From an uncultured virus (IMG/VR IMGVR_UViG_3300032050_000032) (Duplodnaviria > Heunggongvirae > Uroviricota > Caudoviricetes), in the IMG/VR virus record IMGVR_UViG_3300032050_000032: DNA of 54,716 bases, one strand, 5' to 3'. The first letter of the stretch is position 1, and each line of letters opens with the position of its first letter. The translations under genes and the position numbers were made by a program. Under the pieces are notes generated by a model that saw nothing but the letters and a program-made list of their open reading frames with translations, did not search any database and had not been told where the DNA came from. Shown piece by piece: positions 8,049-26,033 of this stretch.

Positions 8049-8451
8049 GGGGGTGTTTTTGGATTTGACAGGTATTGGCTGAAGAATAAGGGCACGTGGG
8101 GACTGAGTTAATCTCCTTAAAAACTGATTCAGAAAAACAACTGGCAATGTGCTAAACAAAATGGAAGCTATCGGATTAATCCGTACTTCTGAAGTTACTG
8201 TAGCTTAATAAGTTTACGGAAACGGGGGGTCGGTGGACATACAACCTAGCAACAGAAGTCTTTACAAAGGTGTGGTTTCTACCCGAAAAGGAACAAACCC
8301 TAATAATCAGGGGTTAATTTGATTATATCTGTTTTTGGATCGGATTTGAAAAACCAAATATTTTGGAACATTAGAAAATGTTAACCTAAACGTGTAGTCC
8401 TTATCTGACAGGATATTATGGACGAGGGTTCGAGCCCCTCCACCTCCACCA
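8049..8451 (+). ncRNA. ssrA: tmRNA
   Basis: Acceptor GGGGGTG/CACCTCC-ACCA with G3:U70, 5' GGATTTGAC motif, T arm GAGGG-TTCGAGC-CCCTC, tag frame 8143-8208 (GNVLNKMEAIGLIRTSEVTVA**). Confidence 0.95.
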
Positions 8452-12325: not shown

Positions 12326-13030
12326 TTAAACTTTTTTAACCAAACTTCTTGAGATTACAGGAGGATTTAATGTTTTACTGTTTAATACGGTTTTTACTAA
12401 ACCACCAGTTCCCCAAGTTTTTAAGTTTGATAAACATTTGTCAGCAATATTTTTTGCCCCAATATCATTTTTTAATCCGTCTAATATACACGGATAATAT
12501 CCATTTTTAATTGTTGATGCGGTTGCACTTATACCATCTTCCTCAGAATCATAATTTCTAACACCTGAAACACATTTCCCTGATTTCTTCTTTAAACAAT
12601 TCCATAAACTAGATCCCTCTTTTTTATGTGTTGTGTTAAATGGGTTATATGTTGCTTGAGCACCTTCCGCTTGTCTCCATGCATAGAAAAATTTCATGTT
12701 TTCTTTTGTTGGTTCAGCACCAATACGATCCAATACTTCTTTATAAAATTCGTCATCAGTTCTATTCCCACCAACGATTTTAACATTATCTGTGTCAGTA
12801 TCCGTAACAGTTTTTGATAATGACTTAAAGAAAGTTTCCACATTATCTGCAATTGTATCCAAGTCAACATTACCATTTAAAAACTCAACAAAACTTTTAA
12901 AGTTTGGACTTTCAGATGACATATCACTAGTAACAAAATCAGTTAATTTAACAGATTCGTTAATTGATAATTTGTGTTTTTGTAAAATATACTTAATCTC
13001 ACCTTCAGTGATTTTAACTCTCCCTTTCAT
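12326..13030 (-). CDS. Lysozyme-like/glucosaminidase-like protein with ITE leader
   Basis: W.QAEG..YNPFNTT and Y.S.E.G..AT..TI.NG.Y..I segments. Confidence 0.5.
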   Translation of the reverse strand: MKGRVKITEGEIKYILQKHKLSINESVKLTDFVTSDMSSESPNFKSFVEFLNGNVDLDTIADNVETFFKSLSKTVTDTDTDNVKIVGGNRTDDEFYKEVLDRIGAEPTKENMKFFYAWRQAEGAQATYNPFNTTHKKEGSSLWNCLKKKSGKCVSGVRNYDSEEDGISATASTIKNGYYPCILDGLKNDIGAKNIADKCLSNLKTWGTGGLVKTVLNSKTLNPPVISRSLVKKV

Positions 13031-13096
13031 AGAATCTTTATTTTATAAATATCCATTAAATAAAAAAACCACCATAGTTGGTGGTTTAATTATGGT

Positions 13097-13843
13097 TTAA
13101 AACCATTTTTCGGACATATCAAGGATGAATCCTCCTTTTCCATCCCAAAGTTTGATTTGGTTTCTTGGAACCCAAAATTCCATTTCACCAATCTCCTCAA
13201 CTTTTTTCAAGTAGTCCTCACGAAACTTATCCGCTTGAGATTTGTCAGTGATATACTCAACACCCATGTGTTTAGCACAAGTCTTACCCATTTTAGTCAA
13301 CATTGAGAACTCGTCAGTAAGAGTTTTTGCACAACACACACAAACATCACCACGCTTTACAGTCATCTTACCTGAGAATTTAACCGCCTTTGCAGTAACA
13401 CCCATTACTTTAGTGATATCCAAAAGGATTGGGTTGAAGTTCAAGTTATATTTTTCTTTCAATCCTTGTCCGATACCTCTACCAACTTTGATAGTATCAC
13501 CTTCAGCCTTGAAGTTCATTTTACGAACAACAGGTTTGTTATTTTCTTTGTCAATTTGTTTCATTGCAGCAGATACTTGTTTATCAGACAATTTACCGAA
13601 TTGAGCCAATTTAGACTTAATATCGTTAACAAAAGAGTTAGATCCTTGGTAGTCAGAGATTACCTTCAAATCACCTGTTAATTCAACAGATTTGATTTCA
13701 CCGATGTTTGAGAAAATTTTCTCAACCGCCATTTGTTGTTTTACGGTTAATGATCCGTAACGAGAGATTGAGTCTTTCATTTTGATGATGAAAGAGTTAG
13801 TTCCTTGGTAGTTTCTTACTTGTGTTGCGATGTCTGTTGTCAT
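13097..13843 (-). CDS. Hypothetical protein (internal repeat, CxxC)
   Basis: Start moved to MTTDIA (13843), below a TATCTTTG promoter; the longer call overlaps a tRNA. Confidence 0.75.
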   Translation of the reverse strand: MTTDIATQVRNYQGTNSFIIKMKDSISRYGSLTVKQQMAVEKIFSNIGEIKSVELTGDLKVISDYQGSNSFVNDIKSKLAQFGKLSDKQVSAAMKQIDKENNKPVVRKMNFKAEGDTIKVGRGIGQGLKEKYNLNFNPILLDITKVMGVTAKAVKFSGKMTVKRGDVCVCCAKTLTDEFSMLTKMGKTCAKHMGVEYITDKSQADKFREDYLKKVEEIGEMEFWVPRNQIKLWDGKGGFILDMSEKWF

Positions 13844-13914
13844 ATCTTTTCCGTTTTGATTTATACAAAGATATGCTTTAGTTTTGAATTGCCAAAACTT
13901 TTTTAAAAAAAATG

Positions 13915-13988
13915 TGGTCCTTGTTGGGATCGAACCAACCACCTATTGATTATGAGTCAATTGCTCTAACCGAATGAGCTAAAGGACC
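13915..13988 (-). tRNA. tRNA-Ile2(CAT) (lysidine type; Met not excluded)
   Basis: Cloverleaf GGTCCTT/AAGGACC-A, loop CTCATAA, ileX-like body. Confidence 0.85.
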
Positions 13989-13993
13989 TTATG

Positions 13994-14094
13994 TAGTCAG
14001 GACAGGATTTGAACCTGTATGATTTAGTTTCTCTATCTGTAATGCACTTAGAATACACAAAACATCTTAGCGTCTACCATTCCGCCACCTGACT
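13994..14094 (-). ncRNA. Non-canonical tRNA-like RNA A (AGTCAGG/CCTGACT family)
   Basis: Leu-like D arm and canonical T arm, expanded centre. Confidence 0.65.
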
Positions 14095-14284
14095 ATTTTT
14101 TCATTTCTTCTAACATTCTATCTAACTCTTCACCATACTTTTTTGACTTCTCTAATCGTTCTTCAGATTGTTTAATTAACTCATGATAATCAACTGAGGG
14201 TTTTGACTTAAATTGGTTTAATAGTCCCACTAAAACTAAACAACCAAGCAAACATCCAATAATCGAAAATAATATTAATTCCAT
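14093..14284 (-). CDS. Small membrane protein
   Basis: 63 aa, N-terminal TM. Confidence 0.65.
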   Translation of the reverse strand: MELILFSIIGCLLGCLVLVGLLNQFKSKPSVDYHELIKQSEERLEKSKKYGEELDRMLEEMKK

Positions 14285-14302
14285 AATTTTTATTTTTTTT
14301 TG

Positions 14303-14398
14303 TAGTCAGGACAGGAGTCGAACCTGTTGCGATACTCAATCGTTAGGCATCCACCTTGGGGTCTCTTAAGTAGATTGTCCCAATTTCGCCGCCTGACT
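14303..14398 (-). ncRNA. Non-canonical tRNA-like RNA B
   Basis: Same acceptor stem and ACAGG-TTCGACT-CCTGT T arm, unrelated centre. Confidence 0.6.
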
Positions 14399-14403
14399 AT
14401 TTT

Positions 14404-14498
14404 GAGGATGAGAAGTCCTCTGTGTTGTGATTCATGCTAGGTTAAATCCAAATCAAGACAATCTCCCACCGCAATTCCTTTCTCAAGGGAACAACACA
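14404..14498 (-). ncRNA. Small structured RNA with a possible loop-loop pseudoknot
   Basis: TGTGTTGT/ACAACACA closing stem; TGAGAA loop complementary to the TTCTCA loop of the 3' hairpin. Confidence 0.45.
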
Positions 14499-14505
14499 AT
14501 ACATA

Positions 14506-14673
14506 TTATTTCAGTACCATATATTTGACACCATCAACGATCTTGGTAATATACTTACCACTATCACCTGACTTTTTGGTTGCCCGTTTAGTACTTCTAC
14601 TTGTCTTCACATTTTTCTCAGTTTCCCCAAACTTCTGCTCAAGGATAACTCTCATTGAATATCTCTCTTTCAT
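14506..14673 (-). CDS. Small basic hypothetical protein (55 aa)
   Basis: Translated by hand: MKERYSMRVILEQKFG...YMVLK. Confidence 0.6.
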   Translation of the reverse strand: MKERYSMRVILEQKFGETEKNVKTSRSTKRATKKSGDSGKYITKIVDGVKYMVLK

Positions 14674-14682
14674 AAGACAAAT

Positions 14683-14886
14683 TTAATCATTTTTTTCTTT
14701 CTTCCAGTATAATTCGTTAAAAATTTGTTTCCATTTGTTCCAAGCCGGAGATAATACCAAAACAAATCCAATGAATCCAATAAACATTGATGTCAATGTT
14801 ACCTCAGACATTAAATAAAAGGTGAAACAAAACAACCCAAAAAACATAACAACCGCAGTTGACAACATAGTGATAAACTCTCTCAT
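14683..14886 (-). CDS. Small two-TM membrane protein
   Basis: 67-aa hydrophobic ORF. Confidence 0.65.
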   Translation of the reverse strand: MREFITMLSTAVVMFFGLFCFTFYLMSEVTLTSMFIGFIGFVLVLSPAWNKWKQIFNELYWKKEKND

Positions 14887-14907
14887 GATATTAATTTAAA
14901 ATTTTAG

Positions 14908-15000
14908 TAGTCAGGAGAGGAATCGAACCTCTCTACAGGGTGCTACCCGACATCCATATCCTTCCATCGGACTCGAACCGACCTTGTATCCAACCTGACT
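14908..15000 (-). ncRNA. Non-canonical tRNA-like RNA C (two T-loop hairpins)
   Basis: AGTCAGG/CCTGACT stem; GTCGG-TTCGAGT-CCGAT and AGAGG-TTCGATT-CCTCT hairpins. Confidence 0.6.
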
Positions 15001-15074
15001 ATAAAAAAGGTTCTGAATCATCCCTCCACTAATCAAGGAGAACCTTTTAATTTCATAGTATTAGTGTTATAGTA

Positions 15075-15452
15075 TCCCACACCGATACGACTAAGATTCG
15101 TTAGCCCATAGTAACCATCCACGGTGGGTCTCTTGTACTTTGGTCCGTCTGTCATCATACCCATCCACCTCACGGCTTCAACACAGATACTCTTTTCACC
15201 ATTTCCTCAGAACATCTTCCCATACCCCCAAAGTTACATGGTGAGTCTCACTCGGAAGCCAGAGTGTGTATTGTAAGATTGTTCAGTGTTCTCACAACTT
15301 GTGGATTACGACACGACTAATTAAAGCCCCTTACCCTCTAAATCCATAATGAGGAATCCTTACCTAACCTGTGTAGCCTCCCCCATAGCCTTGAAGCCTT
15401 CAAGTCAGGTTCACACACCATAACAGACGGATATTTCTGTTAATCGTGGGGT
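15075..15452 (-). ncRNA. Unassigned ~380-nt structured RNA
   Basis: No credible ORF; nested long-range helices 15420-15431 with 15144-15155 (12 bp), 15391-15398 with 15174-15181 (8 bp), 15443-15450 with 15076-15086. Confidence 0.55.
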
Positions 15453-15458
15453 CTTTTG

Positions 15459-15530
15459 TAGTCCCGCCGGGAGTCGAACCCAGATCTGGAGATTAGAAGT
15501 CACCCGTTCTATCCATTGAACTACGGAACC
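15459..15530 (-). tRNA. tRNA-Arg(TCT)
   Basis: Cloverleaf, loop CTTCTAA. Confidence 0.9.
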
Positions 15531-15544
15531 ATATTTAATTTTAG

Positions 15545-15617
15545 CGGAGATTACGGGAGTCGAACCCGCTCCGAACGCCGTGACAGGGCGACATCTTAAC
15601 CATTTGACCTAATCTCC
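15545..15617 (-). tRNA. tRNA-Asp(GTC)
   Basis: Cloverleaf, loop CTGTCAC. Confidence 0.92.
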
Positions 15618-15676
15618 TTAAACACACTTTAAAACCGTAGAGGTACAACTTGTGTGCTGTGTTGTTCTTTTCATTG

Positions 15677-15748
15677 TCACCCATACGGGATTCGAACCCG
15701 TGACTTCACCGTGAAAGGGTGATGGCTTAACCACTTGCCGAATGGGCG
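15677..15748 (-). tRNA. tRNA-Glu(TTC)
   Basis: Cloverleaf, loop CTTTCAC. Confidence 0.92.
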
Positions 15749-15754
15749 AAATTG

Positions 15755-15824
15755 TGGACACTGTGGGAATCGAACCCAAACGATGTGGTTGCAAACCACT
15801 CGACCTGCCGTCGGCATCAGGCCC
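15755..15824 (-). tRNA. tRNA-Ala(TGC), atypical
   Basis: Loop TTTGCAA, G3:U70, bulged acceptor stem, reduced D arm. Confidence 0.7.
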
Positions 15825-15828
15825 AACT

Positions 15829-15905
15829 TGGAGCGGGTGGTGGGACTCAAACCCACAACCCTCGCCTTGGAAGGGCGATGCTCTAATCAATTGAGCTACA
15901 CCCGC
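15829..15905 (-). tRNA. tRNA-Gly(TCC)
   Basis: Cloverleaf with encoded CCA, loop CTTCCAA. Confidence 0.93.
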
Positions 15906-16121
15906 AGTTGTGATGACCTTTGGGGTTAGTCACCACTTTTACATGAATGAGGGGATCAATCCTACTAACATCATGAGTATAAGTTTATCACATTAAACTA
16001 TTACCATAAAACGCCAGTGTTTTACGCCAAAACTGAAAAAACGACTTGACCCCTTGTAACCCCTCTTTTAAGTGCGTGTTACTATCATTTCTCAAGTTGA
16101 ACTCTACTGTATACACTCCCG

Positions 16122-16195
16122 TACCGAAGAAGGGATTTGAACCCATAACCTTGACGATATAAGCGTCCTGCTCTCACCTGTTGAGCTACCTCGGC
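16122..16195 (-). tRNA. tRNA-Ile(TAT)
   Basis: Cloverleaf, anticodon arm GACG-CTTATAT-CGTC. Confidence 0.85.
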
Positions 16196-16341
16196 ATAAA
16201 TTGTCAGTCTTTCCTGACCGTCACCCCTAACCCACAGGTATTACCCGTATCGTAGTAAAGCTTGGTTTGCTTATAAAGATGAACACGGGCTCAGCGTGCC
16301 GTCTTTCAGGAAGAGCCCTTCCATCTATTCATCCTTATTAG

Positions 16342-16414
16342 TTGCGGGAGCCGGACTCGAACCGACGATCTCAGCTTATGAGACTGAGCGGATAACCATC
16401 TTCCACATCCCACT
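16342..16414 (-). tRNA. tRNA-Met(CAT), initiator-like 1:72 mismatch
   Basis: Loop CTCATAA, A1/A72 mismatch, lacks the three G-C anticodon-stem pairs. Confidence 0.8.
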
Positions 16415-16420
16415 ATGTTG

Positions 16421-16512
16421 TAGATAAGAAAGGATTTGAACCTTTAACGCCGTTTTTAACTCGGCATCTCCCCCAAATTGGGGATAGCGTCTACCTATTC
16501 CGCCACTCACCT
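16421..16512 (-). ncRNA. Non-canonical tRNA-like RNA D (Leu-like body, aberrant anticodon arm)
   Basis: AGGTGAG/CTTATCT acceptor, TGGCGGAATAGGTAGACGC D arm, T arm; anticodon loop lacks U33. Confidence 0.6.
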
Positions 16513-16517
16513 ATTTT

Positions 16518-16750
16518 TGTGATTCATAGTTAACACACACTCTCGTTTCACCATCTTATGTTAACAGGTTAATGCACTTTACGAGTTTCCCGTTTCTTAT
16601 GTCACAATATCGTTGATAGTGTTGGGATACCCATCTCGTCCCAATCTTAACTGCTTAATCGTAGTTTTACGAGGCCTCGGCAGGGGGTGATGAATTCCGA
16701 TTCCACTCTGGATTGTCGACATCCGTTGAGTGGGGAAAACCACTATCAAT
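16518..16750 (-). ncRNA. Two tandem structured RNA elements
   Basis: TTGATAGTG/CACTATCAA closes a multi-hairpin domain; TTGTGA/TCACAA closes a second; directly after a promoter and boxA. Confidence 0.45.
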
Positions 16751-16885
16751 ATTTTTATTTCAAAGAACCTTTTCCTTTTCTCACGGGAGTAGGACACTCA
16801 TCTCTAACTTTCCTACCCCCGTTGTTTGTTCTACAAAGATATGTAATCATTTTTAATCTACCAAATCTTTTTTTTGTTTTTTTTG

Positions 16886-16969
16886 TACTCGGAGCGGGAG
16901 TCGAACCCGCACGGGCAAATGCCCACAGGATTTTAAGTCCGGCGTGTCTACCTGTTCCACCATCCGAGC
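16886..16969 (-). tRNA. tRNA-Leu(TAA)
   Basis: Class II cloverleaf, loop CTTAAAA. Confidence 0.93.
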
Positions 16970-17056
16970 AAAAATTTACCAATATGTCAAAGAACCTCTT
17001 CTTGTTTGTTTTACAAAGATATGTATAATTTTTCACATACACAACACCCTGAAAAC

Positions 17057-17086
17057 AAAAATCCCACCTCTTTTGGAGATGGGATT
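17057..17086 (-). terminator. Attenuator terminator of tRNA array 1
   Basis: AATCCCATCTC-CAAAA-GAGGTGGGATT-TTT; its 5' arm is complementary to the leader sequence TGGAGATGG (17116-17124). Confidence 0.8.
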
Positions 17087-17110
17087 CAAATTTTATTATA
17101 TAATAATTTA

Positions 17111-17185
17111 TCACACCATCTCCATACAGAAAGTATCCTCAGCTATCGCCAATCCTCTTAAAGATATGATATGTAAATTTTTCAT
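17111..17185 (-). CDS. Leader peptide 1 (MKNLHIISLRGLAIAEDTFCMEMV), putative tRNA-sensing attenuator
   Basis: 24-codon ORF translated by hand; codons match array-1 tRNAs; last codons carry the antiterminator strand. Confidence 0.75.
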   Translation of the reverse strand: MKNLHIISLRGLAIAEDTFCMEMV

Positions 17186-17245
17186 TTGCGTTTTTATTTG
17201 TTTTGTTATAAATATATGATACTTTTCAAAAGTGTCAAGTTTTAT

Positions 17246-17566
17246 TTAAAAATCTTCACCTTCATCACCAAGAACCTCATAAAGGTAATCCTCATAATTC
17301 AATGAAATATAGTCTGCTAATACCGTGGACAAGTCATCTTGAAAGTCACCCATAATATCTTTGGCCAAAGTCATAGCCTTTTTTCCCATAGTTGCATCAT
17401 CATAATCACCAAGATCGTAAAGAGATTCCCTAACCTCCTTAAACACATCATCCAATGTAATGGATATTCTCATACCATCCATTTTATCTTCTTCGTTATC
17501 TTCTTTAATAACTCGTCTAACAATCCTTGTTAAATCCCCTTCAGTTAATTTAGTTACTCTTTTCAT
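17246..17566 (-). CDS. LTE-leader family protein
   Basis: MKRVTKLTEGDLTRIVRRVIKE. Confidence 0.85.
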   Translation of the reverse strand: MKRVTKLTEGDLTRIVRRVIKEDNEEDKMDGMRISITLDDVFKEVRESLYDLGDYDDATMGKKAMTLAKDIMGDFQDDLSTVLADYISLNYEDYLYEVLGDEGEDF

Positions 17567-17588
17567 ATTTTTTCTTTTATTTATTTAT

Positions 17589-17939
17589 TTATTTTTCAAT
17601 ATCACCCCAAACCTCATCGTATGTTGGGTTTTTTATGTATTCTTCTTCAGATCCAATACTATACTTCAAATCACTAATATAGTTCTCCAATTCCTCAATC
17701 ACCTGATTAATCCTTTCAATTCTCTGTCTTGGACTAATCTTTTTAGATAATCTATATTCTTGAGATAGATATCCTCTTTCACCTGGTTCACTTGTAATAT
17801 TAGATTCATCATAACCAAAGAAAACATCATCTAACTTTTTTCTAAGTTCCAATTCTCTTTTGTGTTCTCTATTTTCTTTAATTGTTCGTTTTACAATTCT
17901 TTGTAAATCTGATTCTGTTAGTCTAATTATTTTTTTCAT
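17589..17939 (-). CDS. LTE-leader family protein
   Basis: MKKIIRLTESDLQRIVKRTIKE. Confidence 0.85.
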   Translation of the reverse strand: MKKIIRLTESDLQRIVKRTIKENREHKRELELRKKLDDVFFGYDESNITSEPGERGYLSQEYRLSKKISPRQRIERINQVIEELENYISDLKYSIGSEEEYIKNPTYDEVWGDIEK

Positions 17940-17951
17940 AAGTTTTGTTTT

Positions 17952-18476
17952 TTATTTATGTTTGGTTAAAAAATCAAGTAATGATTTCAATCGGTCATCA
18001 GTTAGTACTGCCGTACCCTGTGATCCATTTTTTATCCAAGTTTTAAATTCGTATCTATTCCGTGTTGGGTTAAAGATAAAATTGTATTTGTCGAGTCCCG
18101 TATCCATTAATACGTATTCATTATCACTAACTCTACCTTCCTTTCCAACGGGAGGATCATAATCCTCACCACTTTCTTTACCAACTATTGCGTAGTTAAG
18201 TTCATCAAGAATCGCGTCAACAGGAATTTCCTCACCTTCTTCATTATAAAACATCCCTTCTGTCCCATACTCAGAATAATCAACAAGAGGAGTTCCCTCT
18301 TCAACAAGCCCATTATACATTTCAATAATATCTTCAGGAGATACAGAATTACCAAGTTCCATTCTAACCCCATCATATTTTCTTGGGATACGAATCATGC
18401 TCTCATCATTTTCATTAATCACTCGTCTAACAATCCTTGTTAAGTCTGATTCTGTTAGTCTAATTACTTTTTTCAT
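17952..18476 (-). CDS. LTE-leader family protein
   Basis: MKKVIRLTESDLTRIVRRVINE. Confidence 0.85.
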   Translation of the reverse strand: MKKVIRLTESDLTRIVRRVINENDESMIRIPRKYDGVRMELGNSVSPEDIIEMYNGLVEEGTPLVDYSEYGTEGMFYNEEGEEIPVDAILDELNYAIVGKESGEDYDPPVGKEGRVSDNEYVLMDTGLDKYNFIFNPTRNRYEFKTWIKNGSQGTAVLTDDRLKSLLDFLTKHK

Positions 18477-18492
18477 AGGTTTTGTTTTTTAT

Positions 18493-18792
18493 TTATAATG
18501 ATCCAAGATCATCGAATTTTTTAGCGTTTACATATGCATTATCCGCATATTTCAAAAAGTTATCACCATAGATTTTTGCCAATCTATTCATAATTAACTG
18601 AGGATTTTTTCTCATATATCTTAATATATCATTTGGTATTTGTTCATCATATTTACCAAACATATTTTGTAATTGTCTTTCACGAGGAATTTTATTAACA
18701 TGAGGTTCAATTGAGAACTCGTCTTCTTCTTCCTTAATGATTCTTTCAATCATATTTATTAATTCTTTCTCAGATAGTTTTATATTTTTCAT
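18493..18792 (-). CDS. LTE-leader family protein
   Basis: MKNIKLSEKELINMIERIIKE. Confidence 0.85.
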   Translation of the reverse strand: MKNIKLSEKELINMIERIIKEEEDEFSIEPHVNKIPRERQLQNMFGKYDEQIPNDILRYMRKNPQLIMNRLAKIYGDNFLKYADNAYVNAKKFDDLGSL

Positions 18793-18802
18793 ATTTTTTT
18801 AT

Positions 18803-19177
18803 TTAAAATAAAGATTCATCTGATATGTACGAATCATTTGATCCATATTCCTCATCCCATTGATTTAACAATTTTTTTGCCATTCTTCTAACCATTCTTT
18901 CATCCATATTTGATGTGATTGATGGACCATATCCATAAATTTCTGGATTACCGTTATTATCAAGAAGATAAACAACAATTACATCTTTTTCATTTTCTTC
19001 ATCAGGAAACATTGTTGCAACACCTGCCTTTAATCCCGATTCCGATTCAATCCCTTCAATGTCCTTAATCTCACCAAAATCACTAATTGTACCCAATTCG
19101 GCAATTTCACCTTCGGTGATTATGTTTCTAATCAAGTTAACTAATTCTGATTCGGTTAGTCTTATTACTTTTTTCAT
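18803..19177 (-). CDS. LTE-leader family protein
   Basis: MKKVIRLTESELVNLIRNIITE. Confidence 0.85.
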   Translation of the reverse strand: MKKVIRLTESELVNLIRNIITEGEIAELGTISDFGEIKDIEGIESESGLKAGVATMFPDEENEKDVIVVYLLDNNGNPEIYGYGPSITSNMDERMVRRMAKKLLNQWDEEYGSNDSYISDESLF

Positions 19178-19188
19178 ATTAATAAATA

Positions 19189-21021
19189 TTACGCTAATTT
19201 AGTTCCTGCAATACCTTTAAACGGCCAATCAGGAGTAGTTTCTAATTTTGTATATAATTTACCCCAATTTGTTTTCAAATTATCAATTGATCCTTCAGGA
19301 GAATATTGTTTAGATGTTCTATTGAGGTAAACTTTATCAAACATTCTATAAAATTTATTTAGGTAATCTCTTACATCACCATATAAATCATCTTTGTTTA
19401 TTGTTTTATTTTCATATTCACCATCTTCATTTCTTCTTAAACTTAATACAGGTTCTTCAGTAGTTCCTTGATTGTTAATTTCGTTAACAATCTTAGGGTA
19501 ATCCGTCTGTAATCTTGTTAATATATTTTGATATACATCATCAGGAAGTGGTGATTGTAATTTTTTAGAGGCTTCTGCCCTTGGGTTAAATAATGGTGTC
19601 AATTGAGTTCCTAAATATAATATCAAGTTAAACATATCTTGATTTAGAATATCTAACCTATCTAACAATACGGCTTTTTGATCCAATTTTAATTTTTTTC
19701 TTTTCCCTGTATTTGGATCAATTTCTTCTTCAGGTTTTTCACCAGCCGATCTCATTGTTGATATTTTTTCTTGTTTTAATACCCCAACATAACTCATGGC
19801 ATTAGGAACTGTTGAGTCGGTACCCAACTCTAACTTAGTGTCCCCACAAGCGTCTAATCTTAACAGTTTACCTTGAATAATATTTGGTTTACCGTCAAAT
19901 ATAGGTTCGTTAACACCTGGTTTAGTAATTGTGACATTTGGGATGTCTTTATGTGCCGCAGTTGTACTCGCAATCATCCATATATCAATATAACCGTTTC
20001 CATTAGCAACAATACTTGCCGATTGTTCTGAAGTTATTTCAAATGAATCAGAACGACTACCACCAACATCACCTGCAGGTTTTAATTTACCATAACCGTA
20101 AGAATAAGTTCCATCACCATTTTTTAAATAACCATATCCAGGATTTAACCATTTTGGTCCAAATATTGGTGAAGAATCTGCTTTTGGGATACCTCTACTT
20201 GAATTTGAGTTATTTAAATTAGCCGTCATCCCACCAACACTATTATATAATAATGTGCTGTTGGCAAACATAAAGAATTCCGCATTTTGACAATTATGTG
20301 ACTCAACCCAAACTCTAATTTTTAATCCTGTTGCACATTTAGAATCAACAGTTTTTTTGACTGTACTTTTATTTACCTCAATTACAACCCTAAAGTATTG
20401 TTCACTATTATACTTTTTCTTTAATTCGTTAACTTGAGAATGTAAAGGATCTTTTGTATCACCAAGTATTTTCATATAGTTAGTTGTACAAACTGACCTT
20501 GATTGTTCTTTAGTTGAATTTGCGGGACAAAATACACTACCAATCCAAGGAGTCGTTCCAATTTTTTTATCTTCAGTTATCGTAAAATTTGTGTTAATCC
20601 CTTCAGATTTCCAAGAATCAAAAATTGGGGTTATGTATTTTTTTAGTGTATTTAATCTTGCATCATTTAAATAATTTGGATCAACTCTTTTTCCACCTTC
20701 TTGATTATCCGTGTTTGGTATTTGAGATTCACCACTTTCTAATTTAACACTAACAACATAACCCGTAGGATTTTTTTTCAAAAATTCCTTAATATTATTT
20801 AAACCATCTTTTAAAGTTGTGTCAACATCCCAATTATATGTTGTTCCATTTGGTGATGTATATGAGAATTTTGGATTATAATATCCTGGAGCAAAATTAA
20901 TAGTTTTATCTAATTTAAGTGTTTCTGTTGATTTTGCAGGTACCGGATTAGCCTCCTTAAGTATTCCATAAAGATTTAGGATGCGTTTTTTTTCATCTTC
21001 CGTAATTAAAATTTTACCCAT
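19189..21021 (-). CDS. Large hypothetical protein with ITE leader
   Basis: MGKILITEDEKKRILNLYGILKE, 610 aa. Confidence 0.8.
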   Translation of the reverse strand: MGKILITEDEKKRILNLYGILKEANPVPAKSTETLKLDKTINFAPGYYNPKFSYTSPNGTTYNWDVDTTLKDGLNNIKEFLKKNPTGYVVSVKLESGESQIPNTDNQEGGKRVDPNYLNDARLNTLKKYITPIFDSWKSEGINTNFTITEDKKIGTTPWIGSVFCPANSTKEQSRSVCTTNYMKILGDTKDPLHSQVNELKKKYNSEQYFRVVIEVNKSTVKKTVDSKCATGLKIRVWVESHNCQNAEFFMFANSTLLYNSVGGMTANLNNSNSSRGIPKADSSPIFGPKWLNPGYGYLKNGDGTYSYGYGKLKPAGDVGGSRSDSFEITSEQSASIVANGNGYIDIWMIASTTAAHKDIPNVTITKPGVNEPIFDGKPNIIQGKLLRLDACGDTKLELGTDSTVPNAMSYVGVLKQEKISTMRSAGEKPEEEIDPNTGKRKKLKLDQKAVLLDRLDILNQDMFNLILYLGTQLTPLFNPRAEASKKLQSPLPDDVYQNILTRLQTDYPKIVNEINNQGTTEEPVLSLRRNEDGEYENKTINKDDLYGDVRDYLNKFYRMFDKVYLNRTSKQYSPEGSIDNLKTNWGKLYTKLETTPDWPFKGIAGTKLA

Positions 21022-21084
21022 AAATATAAATATAAATATGTATGAAACAAAAAAAACACCCGTTAGGGTGCTTTTTAAAATAGA

Positions 21085-21149
21085 TTAGTACAAGGACTCG
21101 AACCTGTTATTCTCCCATTGAGTGGGTGCGTTCTCCTACACGCTCACTA
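21085..21149 (-). pseudogene. Degenerate tRNA-like remnant
   Basis: CAGG-TTCGAGT-CCT T arm retained; acceptor stem poorly paired. Confidence 0.35.
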
Positions 21150-21155
21150 TATCCA

Positions 21156-21425
21156 TTATTTTACCTCAATAATTGTGTAGGTACCTTCCATTACACCCCA
21201 AGAAGATGATTCGTGGAATGTATACACCTGACAAGAATCTTGTGGTGTCATCGGACGAGTCAAATACCAAATCTGACTTTCCTTCCAAGTTACATTTATC
21301 AACTTTTGTCCCCTTGGTAATGTGAGAGTTCCATCCCCACCCCAATTCTTTACTCGGTTATTTTCAGTACAAGAAGACACTCCAAATAGGGATACTAATC
21401 CCAAAATAAACAACACTTTTTTCAT
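21156..21425 (-). CDS. Small lipoprotein
   Basis: Signal peptide ending in lipobox VSSC. Confidence 0.75.
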   Translation of the reverse strand: MKKVLFILGLVSLFGVSSCTENNRVKNWGGDGTLTLPRGQKLINVTWKESQIWYLTRPMTPQDSCQVYTFHESSSWGVMEGTYTIIEVK

Positions 21426-21443
21426 ATAATTTAATTAATTTTT

Positions 21444-21728
21444 TTACAATTCCTGAACTTGTTTCATAATATTAGTTACTTCTCCAGAAGAAAGATATCC
21501 CATAACATCATTTGTAATTGGTGTATTATAAGTCAAGTCCCACTCATTTTCATCACCAAAGATAACCGCAAGTTCCCATTGGTTATTATTGTTTGTATAT
21601 GATCCGTATCGTCCATTGATTTTAAACCTAACAACAGATACTCCATATCCATTAGGGAAAAATATCAACCCGTGAAGTCCATCACCAACTGGATGAGATT
21701 TAAAATCTATATCATTAAATGTTTTCAT
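21444..21728 (-). CDS. Hypothetical phage protein
   Basis: F.NGYGVSV ... V.GYL pattern common in phage ORFs. Confidence 0.75.
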   Translation of the reverse strand: MKTFNDIDFKSHPVGDGLHGLIFFPNGYGVSVVRFKINGRYGSYTNNNNQWELAVIFGDENEWDLTYNTPITNDVMGYLSSGEVTNIMKQVQEL

Positions 21729-21920
21729 AATCAATTAAATAAAAGTTTTTTGTGTTTTGTTTTTCTAGTATAAAGATTCTTAGGTGTTTCAACTCTTGAT
21801 ACAAATCTCCCATCAAAGAAACCTGCCTCAATCTGATCCTTTCTTACCTGTGTTCTTTTTGTCTTATGTTGATCATATGCTTTCATCTCATTTGTTTTTT
21901 ACAAAGATATAAAAATTTAT

Positions 21921-22163
21921 TTACCACTTTCTTTTTTTATCAAGTTTTTTTGATTTTTGTTCTTCCATCATATTGGCATACTCTATTTTGGTGAGTCGTT
22001 TAAATGAATCATCATCAACACCCCCGAATCTTTTTTTCGCGCTTGATTTTGCTTGGATGAGGTTTTTACCCCATACAATGTTCGATCCCACCACTTCATT
22101 GTTTTTAACCATATTAAAAACATATAAGAACTCCCCTTCTTTGTTCGTCATCAACTTTTCCAT
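21921..22163 (-). CDS. Hypothetical protein
   Basis: Start moved to MEKLMT; the longer call overlaps tRNA-Leu. Confidence 0.6.
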   Translation of the reverse strand: MEKLMTNKEGEFLYVFNMVKNNEVVGSNIVWGKNLIQAKSSAKKRFGGVDDDSFKRLTKIEYANMMEEQKSKKLDKKRKW

Positions 22164-22181
22164 TTTTTTATTTTTTGTTTG

Positions 22182-22262
22182 TACCCCCGGAGAGACTCGA
22201 ACTCTCACACCACTTGGCATCAGATCCTAAATCTGACGTGTCTACCATTCCACCACGGAGGC
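22182..22262 (-). tRNA. tRNA-Leu(TAG)
   Basis: Class II cloverleaf, loop TTTAGGA. Confidence 0.93.
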
Positions 22263-22270
22263 ATTTATTG

Positions 22271-22343
22271 AGCTCAGGGAGGGATTCGAACCCCCGTACC
22301 AAGGTTTTGCAGACCTGGGCCTAAACCACTCGACCACCTGAGC
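22271..22343 (-). tRNA. tRNA-Cys(GCA)
   Basis: Loop CTGCAAA, U73. Confidence 0.92.
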
Positions 22344-22345
22344 AA

Positions 22346-22801
22346 TTAACGACAGTGGTGATCTGCCGCTCTTGTTGCAATTTGATTATCGGGTTTAATA
22401 TTTGATTTATACCCTAATGATGTTGCCCACCCAACAACTGGTTGAACCAATTTTGAACTAAAGTATTTTTCTTCACTATTGTAGTCCAAATCAATTTCAA
22501 CTTGTACCTTCACCTTTTGAGTTAACCATTCAGCAACTTCAATTGAATAATCGGCTTCATTCCATAACCTTGTCCATTTGTCTTTAATCTTTTTTACCTT
22601 TTGTTTATGTAGGATATAGTGGACACCTCTATTTCCGTATCTGTACGCAATTACAGTAACATAAACGGTACTTCTTCTGTGATTCTGAGAGTCAGTTCCT
22701 ATGTGTATCTCAACCCAAGGACATTCTTTTAAAATGTTTAAGGTGTGGTTTACCACATCAGGAATCGCCTCACCATTAACTGTTCTAAATACTCTATTCA
22801 T
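22346..22801 (-). CDS. RNase H-like YkuK/DUF458 family protein
   Basis: IGTDSQ, RL.NEA..S, E.D.D.N, A..AAD motifs. Confidence 0.8.
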   Translation of the reverse strand: MNRVFRTVNGEAIPDVVNHTLNILKECPWVEIHIGTDSQNHRRSTVYVTVIAYRYGNRGVHYILHKQKVKKIKDKWTRLWNEADYSIEVAEWLTQKVKVQVEIDLDYNSEEKYFSSKLVQPVVGWATSLGYKSNIKPDNQIATRAADHHCR

Positions 22802-22817
22802 TATTTCTATTTATTTG

Positions 22818-22890
22818 TGGACAGAGAGGGTTTCGAACCCCCGACGCTCGGCTCTTCAGGCCGACGCTCTACCAACTGAGCTACCTGTCC
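22818..22890 (-). tRNA. tRNA-Phe(GAA)
   Basis: Loop CTGAAGA. Confidence 0.93.
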
Positions 22891-23324
22891 TCATTAATAT
22901 TTTTTAATTTACAACCTTCAAAATAATGTAGTTCCCTATGACAATTAGAACATAATGGTATACATTTTCTGATTTCTTCTTTTATTTTAGTTAATGAAAA
23001 CCCTGATTTTATCATTTTTGAAATTTCATATTGTTTATCTTTTGTGTGATGAAAATCAATGACATACCATCTATTGTCTCCACAATTCAAACACTTTAAA
23101 AATTTTTTATATTTTTTAATAAATTCTTTATTAAATTTAATCTGTTCATTTGACCTAGTTCTAATTTTTTTTTGCCTATCGGGGTTAGTTTTATAATTTT
23201 CCTTATCTATTTCTGAAATACAAACTTTACACTTACTCCTCTTTTTATTTAGTTTTTTATTTTTCCAACTAAACTCCTCAATATTTTTAATTAAACCACA
23301 TCCTGTACATTTTCTATTTTCCAT
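22881..23324 (-). CDS. HNH endonuclease with N-terminal Zn finger, inside the tRNA array
   Basis: CxxC...CxxC, CxxC..DFHH...LCSNCHRELH; stop codon lies inside tRNA-Phe. Confidence 0.8.
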   Translation of the reverse strand: MENRKCTGCGLIKNIEEFSWKNKKLNKKRSKCKVCISEIDKENYKTNPDRQKKIRTRSNEQIKFNKEFIKKYKKFLKCLNCGDNRWYVIDFHHTKDKQYEISKMIKSGFSLTKIKEEIRKCIPLCSNCHRELHYFEGCKLKNINEDR

Positions 23325-23393
23325 AATAATTCTTTTTATATAAATATCATTAAAAATAAAAAAGGACTGAAAGTACCAAAAATTTTTCGGTTC

Positions 23394-23894
23394 TTATTTA
23401 ATTTCAAACGCCGCCCTCATAGGTCGTTTGATTTTTACCGCATCTTCATAGTTACCAATCACAACACCATCTTTAATTGTAAATGCGTGTCCTTTAACTA
23501 ATACGAAGAATGTACCTTTAGGGTTTTTCTTTACAAATGTACCAACAGTCATTTGTCTTTTAACTTGTTCACCTTTCACTTTTACATCATATGAAAGTGA
23601 ATATGGATAAGCAAAACTACTACACTTTGTCCCAATAGGTGTAATCTTCTTACTGTTAACTTTAATTAAACTCTCAGATAGTTTAACCATTTTAGATGCA
23701 GTAAAATATGTACCCTTTCTTGGTTTTCTTTTAAACTCTTCCGCAACATACTTATGGGCATAATCATAAGAAACATCAAATGCCGAAGCAAACGCCCTAA
23801 CAACACAATCGTTTGTTTCGGTTCTTGCAGTTGCAGAATCAGTATAACCTTTAATCGCTTTTCCTGTAGATTCGTATGGTAATTTGTTTTTCAT
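23394..23894 (-). CDS. Hypothetical phage protein (NDCVVRA...H motif)
   Basis: Conserved-looking Cys/His pair; own TATCTTTA promoter-like site. Confidence 0.7.
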   Translation of the reverse strand: MKNKLPYESTGKAIKGYTDSATARTETNDCVVRAFASAFDVSYDYAHKYVAEEFKRKPRKGTYFTASKMVKLSESLIKVNSKKITPIGTKCSSFAYPYSLSYDVKVKGEQVKRQMTVGTFVKKNPKGTFFVLVKGHAFTIKDGVVIGNYEDAVKIKRPMRAAFEIK

Positions 23895-23938
23895 ACTGTA
23901 AAGATACAAAAAGTTTTTTAATTGGCAAAATTAAAAAT

Positions 23939-24012
23939 TGGCACACAGTGTAGGGATCGAACCTACCCGGCGAGGTTTTGGAGACCTGCCCGACACCCTG
24001 TCTGTACTGTGT
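23939..24012 (-). tRNA. tRNA-Trp(CCA), short D arm
   Basis: Loop CTCCAAA, G73 and encoded CCA. Confidence 0.85.
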
Positions 24013-24018
24013 ATGTTG

Positions 24019-24091
24019 TACCCTCGGAGAGATTCAAACTCCCATCTCACGATCCGTAGTCGTGTGTTCTGTTCGATTGAACTACAAAGGC
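24019..24091 (-). tRNA. tRNA-Arg(ACG)
   Basis: Loop CTACGGA. Confidence 0.9.
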
Positions 24092-24225
24092 ATAATAGTT
24101 TTGGTCAACCACTCGCATCCCACCGATTTCTTGAATCAAACTTTTTGTAGTCCAAACGATTATTAATCTCCTACGACTCATTCTCAACTCACTCGCCTAA
24201 GCCTTGTCCGTTGTAAACTATTTTG

Positions 24226-24299
24226 TGTGTATGATGGGTTACGATCCCATTACCTTCGGTTCCACAAACCGACGCTCTCCCGATTGAGCTACATACACC
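24226..24299 (-). tRNA. tRNA-His(GTG)
   Basis: Loop TTGTGGA, G-1 present, A rather than C at position 73. Confidence 0.88.
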
Positions 24300-24306
24300 A
24301 TATAAG

Positions 24307-24374
24307 TCCCGTATGTTGGACTTGAACCAACCTAAAGTCGGATATGAGCCAACTTTGATCCCTGATCATACGGG
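24307..24374 (-). tRNA. tRNA-Met(CAT), truncated D arm
   Basis: CCCGTAT/ATACGGG acceptor, GTTGG-CTCATAT-CCGAC, 68 nt. Confidence 0.7.
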
Positions 24375-24380
24375 TTGTTG

Positions 24381-24464
24381 CGGAAGACATTGGAATCGAA
24401 CCAAATACCCGAAGGTACATCTCGCTTAGCAGGCGGACCCTATCGCCATCAAGGTTTATCTTCC
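24381..24464 (-). tRNA. tRNA-Ser(GCT)
   Basis: Class II, loop CTGCTAA. Confidence 0.88.
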
Positions 24465-24468
24465 GTAG

Positions 24469-24541
24469 TGCTCATCACCGGTTACGATCCGATTCTCTCC
24501 ACGATATCAGCGTGGTGCTTTCCCAATTAAGCTAGATGAGC
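24469..24541 (-). tRNA. tRNA-Ile(GAT)
   Basis: Loop CTGATAT. Confidence 0.9.
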
Positions 24542-24706
24542 TGGTGCGTATTTAGGGGTATTTATTAACCACCCCCTCAGCTCGCCAGCATCTCGGTGGT
24601 TGATACTTTAGTCGTGGGGAACCCACCTTCCACTTCTTACTAGATTCTTGTGGTCTACTTACTATAGTTCATACCGTTACCACTGGGGAACCCAACATTG
24701 TATCTT

Positions 24707-24782
24707 TGGCGGACAAGGTAGGGTACGATCCTACAACCTATCGGTTAACAGCCGATTGCTCTACCAATTGAGCTACTTGTCC
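24707..24782 (-). tRNA. tRNA-Asn(GTT)
   Basis: Loop CTGTTAA, encoded CCA. Confidence 0.93.
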
Positions 24783-24790
24783 ATTTGTTG

Positions 24791-24873
24791 TGGGAGAGGA
24801 GGGACTCGAACCCCCAAGGTCTTACGACGACAGATTTACAGTCTGCTGAGCCAACCAATTGCTCAACTCTCCC
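24791..24873 (-). tRNA. tRNA-Tyr(GTA)
   Basis: Class II, loop CTGTAAA. Confidence 0.93.
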
Positions 24874-24878
24874 TTTTG

Positions 24879-24952
24879 TACACCCTACAGGGATCGAACC
24901 TGTGACCTGTTGTATGTAAAACAACCGCTACTACCATCTGAGCTAAAGGTGT
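24879..24952 (-). tRNA. tRNA-Val(TAC)
   Basis: Loop TTTACAT. Confidence 0.9.
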
Positions 24953-25028
24953 GTGTTTAGAGAATTTTAATCTTTATATCATTGGCGTATGCACCATCGC
25001 CCTATTTGATTATTATTCTCTAAATCTG

Positions 25029-25103
25029 TGATCCCGGTGAGGCTCGAACTCACGACCCCTCCATTAAAAGTGGAGTGCTCTAAACCAACTGAGCTACGAG
25101 ATC
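25029..25103 (-). tRNA. tRNA-Lys(TTT)
   Basis: Loop CTTTTAA. Confidence 0.93.
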
Positions 25104-25121
25104 TTCTGTTTGTCGTACTTG

Positions 25122-25310
25122 TCACTTTCCATAGGACATTAATTTTTGATTGTTTAGGTTTATTTCTGTTTCTACTCTTTTTAGTTCTTCACTTAAATCC
25201 CCACGGTAGGATGGATCTTTACTAATCTTAACAAGACTAAGATAATAATGGTTTAAACCACTCAACTTACCTTTAATTGCAATTATTTCACATTCTTCGT
25301 TTGTTACCAT
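25122..25310 (-). CDS. Small hypothetical protein inside the tRNA array
   Basis: 62-aa ORF filling the gap between tRNA-Pro and tRNA-Lys. Confidence 0.6.
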   Translation of the reverse strand: MVTNEECEIIAIKGKLSGLNHYYLSLVKISKDPSYRGDLSEELKRVETEINLNNQKLMSYGK

Positions 25311-25325
25311 TTTTTAAAGTTTTAG

Positions 25326-25398
25326 TAGGGTAGACCGGACTCGAACCGACATCGTCCACATCCCAAATGTGGTGACTTACCAATTAGTCAACTACCCT
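25326..25398 (-). tRNA. tRNA-Pro(TGG)
   Basis: Loop TTTGGGA. Confidence 0.9.
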
Positions 25399-25404
25399 AT
25401 ATTG

Positions 25405-25488
25405 AGGAAGAGTGAGGTGTCGATCCCCATACCTTTCGGTACCTGCCGTTTTCAAGACGGAGTCACAAGCCGTTGTGATTACCCTTCC
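25405..25488 (-). tRNA. tRNA-Ser(TGA)
   Basis: Class II, loop CTTGAAA. Confidence 0.88.
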
Positions 25489-25492
25489 ATTG

Positions 25493-25564
25493 TTGTTCCC
25501 CAAGGGTTCGAACCTCGATTCCATGGACCAAAACCATGTGTCCTGCCGATTAGACGAGGGAACA
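25493..25564 (-). tRNA. tRNA-Gln(TTG)
   Basis: Loop TTTTGGT, U1-A72. Confidence 0.92.
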
Positions 25565-25606
25565 TTAATGAAGCCAATATGTCAAAGAACTCTTTCTTTT
25601 TGTTTG

Positions 25607-25678
25607 AGGTTTCTATCAGGTTCGAACTGATGACTCTGGGTTACAAATCCAGGGTATTACCAACTATACTAAGAAACC
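25607..25678 (-). tRNA. tRNA-Thr(TGT)
   Basis: Loop TTTGTAA. Confidence 0.88.
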
Positions 25679-25692
25679 AAATTTTTGGATAT

Positions 25693-25722
25693 AAAAAAAC
25701 CCTAACTGTTTTGAGTTAGGGT
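25693..25722 (-). terminator. Attenuator terminator of tRNA array 2
   Basis: ACCCTAACT-CAAAAC-AGTTAGGGT-TTTTTT, about 15 nt before tRNA-Thr. Confidence 0.85.
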
Positions 25723-25757
25723 CTTATATTCCTTTTTATGTTTTATGTTAATATCTA

Positions 25758-25865
25758 TCAACTCATAAACGAAAATGCCCTAATATCCGACTTCAGCGTA
25801 CGATACACGAACGACCACTGATTGCTCGGGATACAAATGTTCATATGTTTATTAGTTGTTTTCAT
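25758..25865 (-). CDS. Leader peptide 2 (MKTTNKHMNICIPSNQWSFVYRTLKSDIRAFSFMS), putative tRNA-sensing attenuator
   Basis: 35-codon ORF translated by hand; contains a codon for each of the 17 downstream tRNAs; its 3' end pairs with the terminator 5' arm. Confidence 0.8.
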   Translation of the reverse strand: MKTTNKHMNICIPSNQWSFVYRTLKSDIRAFSFMS

Positions 25866-25870
25866 TTTGT

Positions 25871-25945
25871 TATAAATATAGTGTTTTTACTAAAAGTTCA
25901 AATTTCTTGTACAAAGATAGGTACTTTTTTTAATTTGACAAGTGT
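25871..25945 (-). promoter_or_regulatory. Promoter region of array 2 (TATTTATA motif and TATCTTTG)
   Basis: Minus-strand TATTTATA at 25871-25878; TATCTTTG at about 25912-25919. Confidence 0.55.
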
Positions 25946-26033
25946 TTCATTGTTTTTTTATATATGAAAATATTTATTATAGTATATAATTTAAGATGAT
26001 GGTTATATAATTGTAAAAATTAAAAAAATTTAG

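Follow-up and report, generated by a model that had tools for sequence, protein, structure and literature searches.

The 54,716-nucleotide stretch analyzed here (the window) comes from an uncultured tailed phage (Caudoviricetes; IMG/VR record IMGVR_UViG_3300032050_000032) and lies, in reverse orientation, in a 304,365-bp virus record of ~31% G+C, whose 24 tRNA genes and tmRNA are all located in the window. The tRNA genes stand in arrays on the minus strand. Array 1 is headed by a compact element, leader 1, in which a promoter-like sequence, a 24-codon open reading frame (ORF) and an intrinsic terminator precede the first tRNA gene (Table 1); array 2 is headed by leader 2 (window 25758–25897, minus strand), whose ORF has 35 codons. 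An initial annotation of the window proposed that leader 1 is an attenuator whose codons match the tRNAs of array 1, and its coordinates and sequences for the ORF at 17185–17111 and for the terminator are correct. On the evidence assembled below we hold, with moderate confidence, that leader 1 is a ribosome-dependent (leader-peptide) transcription attenuator. Its ORF, terminator, internal complementarity and conservation, the identity of the boxA that follows and the correspondence between leader codons and tRNA genes are established by sequence and comparison.

Homologs of leader 1 were collected by a motif scan of viral contigs and by searching metagenomes with the ORF start as anchor. Eighty copies passed the filter among 120 pattern matches; the 40 that were dropped comprised 35 unrelated chance matches and five class-A copies that were cut by a contig end or lacked the 3' arm of the terminator (L203, L246, L267, L272, L277). 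Two alignments were used: A4, with 53 distinct sequences including three from a deletion clade, and A3, with 17 sequences. The ORF is open in all 53 distinct homologs, at 22–25 codons, and its stop falls in a single alignment column. Only three indel events occurred inside it, of −3, −3 and +3 nt, whereas the neighbouring spacer carries indels of 1–4 nt, some of them not multiples of three, and is variable in 18 of 24 alignment columns. Variable columns of A4 are distributed 11/15/15 over the three codon positions, with no third-position excess, and the ratio of nonsynonymous to synonymous polymorphism (pN/pS) is 0.59 in the ORF frame, the two shifted frames giving 0.81 and 0.46, and reaches 1.09 over the last seven codons. 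A functional micropeptide was ruled out as the principal explanation, as pN/pS is no lower than in shifted frames. With its frame kept and no visible selection on its amino acids, apart from the invariant start MKNLHI discussed below, the ORF shows the pattern that a regulatory leader should show, unlike a working micropeptide.

Table 1. Features of leader 1 and of the start of tRNA array 1 (window coordinates).
Feature	Position	Strand	Description
Promoter-like element	17238–17202	−	TTGACA (17238–17233), then ACTTTT-N11-TATATTTATAACAAA (17233–17202); −10-like TATATT at 17216–17211
A-rich 5' untranslated stretch	17186–17201	−	AACAAATAAAAACGCAA; no Shine-Dalgarno sequence; kept in 17/17 homologs of alignment A3
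Leader ORF	17111–17185	−	24 codons plus TGA; ATG 17185–17183, TGA 17113–17111; peptide MKNLHIISLRGLAIAEDTFCMEMV
Region 1, candidate anti-antiterminator strand	17162–17179	−	Codons 3–8; paired with 17123–17105 in the minimum free energy fold
Region 2, putative antiterminator 5' strand	17116–17124	−	TGGAGATGG; last four codons
AT-rich spacer	17088–17110	−	23 nt; small inverted repeat AAATT..AATTT bringing regions 2 and 3 together
Region 3	17074–17082	−	CCATCTCCA; terminator 5' arm and first loop bases
Intrinsic terminator	17049–17087	−	Stem-loop 17087–17059, 12 pairs, 5 G-C, loop of 5; T-tract 17058–17049
Internal Bacteroidota-type −7 promoter box	17014–17021	−	TATCTTTG (TAnnTTTG); motif match
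boxA-like element	16979–16995	−	GTTCTTTGACATATTGG; copy of host rRNA-operon spacer antitermination box
tRNA-Leu(TAA), first gene of array 1	16885–16969	−	ARAGORN, Rfam; array extends to tRNA-Met at 13914

The terminator, whose stem-loop is followed by TTGTTTTCAG, has a predicted energy of −17.1 kcal/mol and is 97.8% paired across the 53 homologs. Three of its pairs covary, with 12 cells changed on both sides, a count that none of 500 shuffles of A4 reached. The 5' arm of this terminator has a second potential partner within the ORF: region 2 (TGGAGATGG, 17124–17116) is the exact 9-nt reverse complement of region 3 (CCATCTCCA, 17082–17074), as the initial annotation had reported. Of 5000 shuffles that preserved dinucleotides, 30 produced a complement of at least 9 nt linking the arm and loop to the 122 nt upstream of them (P = 0.006). 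In every homolog region 2 occupies the final codons and ends 2 nt 5' of the stop, and the 2:3 helix is paired in 89.9% of A4 cells, against 39–58% when the partner is slid by 1–3 columns.

A check for covariation between the leader 3' end and the terminator arm, suggested along with the initial prediction, came out in its favour. Three pairs of the 2:3 helix show double changes among the 53 homologs, a result matched in 0 of 500 shuffles on A4 and 2 of 500 on A3. In L011 the leader change GAG to AAG is accompanied by C to T in the 5' arm and G to A in the 3' arm; in L022 ATG to AGG in the leader goes with A to C in the arm, its sister L021 having the leader change only; and in L053 an A-U pair replaces the G-C of the others. 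Three more changes are wobble-compatible. When the 3' arm is withheld, RNAalifold returns exactly the 2:3 helix from A3 and prefers an ORF-internal helix from A4. The 2:3 hairpin is predicted at −16.0 kcal/mol including the inner stem of the spacer (−12.3 for the nine base pairs alone), and the ORF-internal hairpin between regions 1 and 2, which is 87% paired in 17 homologs, at −17.3 kcal/mol, so that the energies of terminator, 2:3 helix and ORF hairpin are balanced. The predicted fold of the 206-nt region as a whole is more stable than those of 199 among 200 shuffles (z = −2.99). A role for region 1 as the anti-antiterminator strand is weakly supported.

Strong covariation in the terminator would also be expected if the module were a constitutive leaky terminator or insulator, ending transcription from array 2 and the genes upstream with a fixed read-through ratio and an ORF that is not sensed; the competing helix would then tune terminator efficiency or respond to a signal other than the ribosome. 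Indeed the terminator covariation is the strongest signal in the data, the 1:2 helix is unsupported, and the module does separate the arrays in L025 and L039, where 21 nt lie between its start and tRNA-Leu(TAG), the gene with which array 2 ends. This explanation appears improbable to us, since the frame of the ORF is kept through three indels of 3n length in 53 variants and that of the spacer is not, since region 2 invariably sits where a terminating ribosome would cover it, and since the codons of the leader correspond to the tRNAs of the array, as follows.

Codon tests were carried out under strict wobble rules against a background of 217 long phage ORFs (78,152 codons), and tRNAs with ARAGORN introns or odd anticodon loops were excluded from coverage counts; the tests are post hoc, the pattern having been noticed before testing. 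Thirteen of the 24 codons of leader 1 belong to the array-1 set, compared with a genome-wide fraction of 0.299 (binomial 0.011; 0.040 against random 24-codon windows). They cover all eight clean tRNA genes of array 1, or seven of seven species (empirical P = 0.035), and the matching codons TTA/TTG, ATA, AGA, GGA, GAG, GAT and ATG all lie within codons 1–17, upstream of region 2. The contrast between the two leaders, expressed as an odds ratio, was reached by 0.3% of random pairs (empirical P 0.003). Thirteen genomes had sufficient flanking sequence for a wider count; of their 83 clean array-1 tRNA genes, 74 are matched by a cognate codon in the leader 1 of the same genome. The codon match first proposed thus stands for the eight clean genes, against an empirical null and in 13 relatives; its alanine component (Ala-TGC) does not, as discussed below.

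The gene for tRNA-Arg(UCU) belongs to array 1 in some lineages and to array 2 in others. Five genomes carry AGA at codon 10 of leader 1 (G000, G003, G007, G016, G019), and all five have tRNA-Arg(UCU) in array 1, that of G007 being an intron-type call only. Among the 12 genomes without a leader-1 AGA, 11 are also without this tRNA in array 1, the exception being G010; presence and absence therefore agree in 16 of 17 genomes. At leader 2, five of six genomes with AGA carry tRNA-Arg(UCU) in array 2 (exception G001), and seven of eight genomes without AGA are without it there (exception G006). The corresponding Fisher values, uncorrected for shared ancestry, are ~0.001 for leader 1 and ~0.016 for leader 2.

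Leader 2 shows the same relationship to its own array. Twenty-five of its 35 codons fall in the array-2 set against an expected fraction of 0.482 (empirical 0.008), and together they cover 15 of 15 array-2 tRNA species, which no random window out of 20,000 achieved. Its terminator stems covary, and tRNA-Thr starts ~18 nt past its T-tract in the window and 10–20 nt past it in every genome seen. In all leader-2 copies a TAnnTTTG box stands 22 nt upstream of the phage motif described below. The initial annotation had described the two leaders as unrelated in sequence, which is true of the ORFs and terminators; the promoter-like ACTTTT-N11-TATATTTATAACAAA is common to both. Likewise, the architecture that leader 1 was said to repeat recurs as promoter, ORF and terminator; for the switch itself, no comparable antiterminator was found in leader 2.

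These codon data bear on another possible sensor. The first six residues, MKNLHI, and their codons are invariant in all 53 homologs, synonymous sites included (synonymous polymorphism, pS, of 0.046 for codons 1–7), as might be seen if MKNLHI were an arrest peptide that operates the same terminator/antiterminator switch in response to a small molecule or to a phage or host factor, and not to tRNA supply. We judge this very unlikely: no known arrest motif was recognized in the sequence, no test aimed at one having been made, the invariance could equally reflect the translation-initiation region or an overlap with region 1, and both the tracking of AGA and the array-specific codon sets would be left unexplained.

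Leader 1 is preceded by the sequence CTTGACACTTTTGAAAAGTATCATATATTTATAACAAAA (17238–17201), which lies 3' of the gene ending at 17246 on the same strand and contains TTGACA-N16-TATATT. With 11 of 12 positions this is the top sigma-70-like match between 13.5 and 26.5 kb, a region in which a sigma-70 consensus scan found no general enrichment (51 sites against 48.9 expected). Only two copies of the 16-mer core TATATTTATAACAAAA, with up to one mismatch allowed, exist in the 304,365-bp genome; one precedes leader 1 and the other leader 2 (25880). The element is nearly invariant among leader homologs, and a scan of viral contigs for ACTTTT-N11-TATATTTATAACAAA returned 45 loci, of which 22 were leader-1 copies, 13 leader-2 copies and 10 ordinary protein genes; allowing up to two mismatches, the motif also stands before protein genes in relatives. 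It is probably a phage promoter, to judge from this distribution, and one read by the host core RNA polymerase with a phage sigma factor. The same phage genome encodes a sigma-70 family protein (G000:C1:280726–280932, outside the window), and no match to the RNA polymerase beta-prime subunit was found in its 304 kb.

Two groups of protein genes share this promoter motif. In L015, L026, L037, L042, L044, L045, L048, L050 and L054 it precedes a conserved protein of 217–230 aa (MGYLDN(S/T)SITVDAILTKRGRELL...), which returned no PHROGs families; these contigs, from other and smaller phages, have no tRNAs near the motif and this protein. Immediately upstream of leader 1 lies a run of small paralogous proteins (17246–19177, minus strand) with the common N-terminus MKK(V/I)IRLTESDLxRIVxRVI, some of which stand behind the same motif in relatives; the one tested, the neighbouring 106-aa protein, likewise returned no PHROGs families.

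Downstream of the terminator, the exact 17-mer GTTCTTTGACATATTGG has at least 122 matches in bacterial genomes, nearly all of them Bacteroidota, and all 12 loci checked have it in the 16S–23S spacer between the spacer tRNAs and 23S rRNA, the position of the spacer boxA in rRNA operons. By this identity the phage seems to borrow the host rRNA antitermination system for its tRNA arrays. This boxA follows the leader-1 terminator in 60 of 61 distinct downstream contexts, one context being without it. In 40 contexts it is found 0–8 nt past the T-tract with no promoter between, and in four of those 40 (L051, L205, L244, L253) tRNA-Leu(TAA) comes directly after it, at +26 to +28. A boxA placed directly past a terminator would serve no purpose unless transcripts crossed it, so read-through matters, and it is needed in relatives with no promoter between the terminator and the boxA or tRNA. 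Exact copies of the box occur at both arrays of the window (16979–16995 and 25574–25590, minus strand); that of array 1 is placed past the leader-1 terminator and a promoter, that of array 2 past tRNA-Thr.

The promoter in question is a TAnnTTTG box, which we take to be the −7 promoter consensus of Bacteroidota. Twelve such boxes (TATCTTTG) occur in the window against 4.2 ± 2.2 expected, a number reached in none of 100 shuffles, and the motif class persists in diverged homologs, as TACATTTG in L005 and L008. The initial annotation had warned of promoter-like sites below the terminator, and they are indeed present, at 17021–17014 and 16841–16834. They bring up a different organization, in which the upstream part is a self-contained unit of phage promoter, micro-ORF or short stable RNA, and own terminator, array 1 is expressed from the TAnnTTTG promoter with its boxA, and the complementarity only shapes the 3' structure of the mRNA. 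Twenty of the 61 contexts, the window included, do have such a box between the terminator and boxA, and many others have one 35–60 nt past boxA. Half of the peptide positions (MKNLHI, G11, A15, E16, V24) barely vary across 21 distinct peptides, and small ORFs are common in phage tRNA regions. We nevertheless find this organization unlikely. Its micro-ORF has a pN/pS that is not below that of the shifted frames, and above one in the last seven codons; the promoterless boxA in 40 contexts, with the tRNA next in four, would be pointlessly placed if transcripts stopped; and the covariation between leader and arm, the codon/tRNA correspondence and the tracking of AGA are left unexplained.

The data presented above have led us to propose a model in which leader 1 acts as an attenuator. 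Transcripts would start at the phage-type promoter (17238–17202), and a ribosome would translate the 24-codon leader. If translation ran smoothly to the stop codon, the ribosome would cover region 2, the terminator at 17087–17049 would fold and the transcript would end. If instead the ribosome stalled anywhere in codons 1 to ~16, region 2 would stay exposed and could capture the 5' arm ahead of synthesis of the 3' arm, and the polymerase would continue. The stall sites would be the codons read by the array's own tRNAs; since the leader holds one to three codons per tRNA, shortage of any array tRNA would open the gate. The read-through RNA would carry boxA, recruiting NusB/S10 and letting the polymerase traverse the structured and untranslated array of tRNA genes processively, and phage tRNA synthesis would as a net outcome be driven by demand. 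The use of the promoter, translation of the leader, stalling, kinetic coupling and the function of boxA are here what we infer from the anatomy of the locus.

Several observations weigh against this model. Every compensatory change in the 2:3 helix is confined to a single sequence, and the homologs are related to one another. About 10 of the 53 homologs have an uncompensated mismatch within the helix: five at A4 columns 68/115 (four KVMV sequences and L226), five at columns 71/112 (L049, L053, L182, L271, L021), and single further cases in L192 and L236; each leaves 5+2 or 2+5 base pairs. Covariation in the 1:2 helix is no better than in shuffles of the 17 homologs. For leader 2, consensus folding without the 3' arm yields no antiterminator. 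The codon enrichment of leader 1 taken alone is modest and post hoc, and 11 of its 24 codons fall outside the array-1 set. Two of these are alanine codons without a partner in the array: tRNA-Ala(TGC) is absent from array 1 by ARAGORN with and without introns, by Rfam at E ≤ 0.1 and by BLAST with the tRNA-Ala of three relatives. The association between AGA and tRNA-Arg(UCU) is suggestive, confounded as it is by shared ancestry, and may comprise perhaps three independent events with three exceptions. The synonymous invariance of MKNLHI points to a constraint beyond attenuation. In the 20 contexts with a TAnnTTTG box between terminator and boxA, this phage among them, the host-type promoter (here at 17021–17014) would be a second, attenuator-independent entry that partly bypasses the switch, since array 1 can be made from it. 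Lastly, in the assembled contigs of four RNA libraries, leader depth is 0–19 in one library and 0 in three.

The window's stretch is present in DNA runs labelled lake or freshwater and in some labelled fungus metagenome. Six RNA libraries contain 7–10% of its words; four of these were available as assembled contigs only, which cover tRNA-Leu and 16651–16770, and one 151-nt RNA-library contig of depth 3 (17094–16978) crosses the terminator and T-tract, DNA carry-over being possible in both cases. A megablast of 16000–18500 against the GenBank phage collection gave a single 50-nt match in a megaphage record and nothing syntenic.

Identification of the host relies on several signals. The phage genome carries a gene for ribosomal protein bS21 (G000:C1:135021–135179, outside the window). 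Because of this gene, the enrichment of TAnnTTTG, the rRNA-spacer 17-mer, the ~31% G+C and the lake DNA runs, the phage is grouped with the freshwater bS21 jumbo phages of Bacteroidetes reported by Chen et al. 2022 (PMC9723584), and its host is taken to be a member of the Bacteroidota. It resembles those phages in genome size (304 kb), G+C content, its 24 tRNA genes, bS21, Bacteroidota signals and freshwater origin; the text of that paper never uses the words 'terminator' or 'promoter' and does not describe tRNA leaders of these phages. Bacteroidetes usually do without Shine-Dalgarno sequences, according to the same paper (PMC9723584). The leader ORF of array 1 begins directly after its untranslated stretch. 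An A-rich leader without a Shine-Dalgarno sequence, such as this one, fits Bacteroidota.

The proposed switch can be set beside three known systems. Like the attenuators of amino-acid operons in enterobacteria (trpL, hisL, leuL, thrL and the multivalent ilv leaders), leader 1 has a short ORF just 5' of an intrinsic terminator, an ORF 3' end that can pair with the terminator 5' arm, comparable helix energies and an enrichment in codons tied to the products of the downstream genes. Four of six features that define leader-peptide attenuators are found here: an open ORF, a terminator, a maskable antiterminator and tied codons. The ilv and thr leaders sense several amino acids at once, as the phage leader is proposed to do. 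In contrast to these systems, the phage leader would control tRNAs and not biosynthetic enzymes, so that the quantity sensed would be the regulated product; it has no runs of a single codon; and it belongs to a phage of Bacteroidota, with a phage-type promoter, a boxA downstream and a 1:2 helix without covariation.

T-box riboswitches are also terminator/antiterminator leaders that report tRNA status. Those of Firmicutes, which precede genes for aminoacyl-tRNA synthetases and amino-acid genes, bind uncharged tRNA directly with no need for translation, measure ~200 nt or longer and contain a conserved T-box sequence, whereas the phage leader has a conserved ORF and no Rfam match. A T-box was ruled out as a candidate, no covariance model matching within 17040–17245 at Rfam E ≤ 0.1; at the same threshold 13000–26500 gave tRNAs only, and no leader, T-box or riboswitch family. 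The third likeness is to rRNA-operon antitermination, the phage 17-mer being identical to the boxA region in the 16S–23S spacer of many Bacteroidota. Phage lambda, too, borrows the Nus machinery of its host (PMC2800207, PMC3177189). Unlike lambda nut or rrn boxA, the phage box has no boxB or N-like partner that we could see, serves tRNA arrays and stands downstream of an attenuator.

Other features of the window were noted in passing. Three odd tRNA-like genes lie on the minus strand at 16421–16512, 14907–15000 and 13994–14094; the set comprises one long-variable-arm tRNA with a 6-nt anticodon loop and two for which a call requires an insertion of 11 nt or 25 nt in the anticodon loop (Ser-GGA or Pro-TGG; Leu-TAG), and similar 'intron' tRNA calls recur in relatives. 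Within array 1, the stretch 16530–16841 (minus strand) opens with an TATCTTTG box at 16841–16834 and a boxA-like GGTTCTTTGAAATA (~16770), followed by ~240 nt without a long ORF or an Rfam match, of which RNA-library contigs cover 16685–16757 without a difference; it may be an unnamed stable RNA. The tmRNA occupies 8049–8451 on the plus strand and encodes the tag peptide EKEQTLIIRG.

Genes for tRNAs are usually regarded as controlled by promoters only. No published account of an attenuator of this kind was found for any tRNA gene in a literature search covering mainly titles and abstracts. What is new here is the tRNA genes as the target, the occurrence in a Bacteroidota phage and the link to a boxA taken over from rRNA operons, the anatomy and logic being those of multivalent attenuators. 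More broadly, we suggest tentatively, with confidence a little short of even, that the tRNA arrays of these phages are autoregulated by multivalent, codon-matched attenuators with a hijacked boxA, and that the codon follows the tRNA gene when it moves between arrays, as AGA follows tRNA-Arg(UCU).

If this is true, a cis-acting switch that reads decoding speed for its own tRNAs would form a feedback loop through which phages meter tRNA supply to demand. Whether phage tRNAs serve codon compensation or replace tRNAs destroyed by host defences is currently debated (PMC10264068, PMC11555353), and the shortage that opens the gate could stem from either the codon demand of the AT-rich phage or host anticodon nucleases. 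Read-through of the 190-nt element could then report which tRNAs become limiting during infection. The boxA, for its part, suggests that phages of Bacteroidota enlist the rRNA antitermination machinery of their hosts to serve their tRNA arrays.

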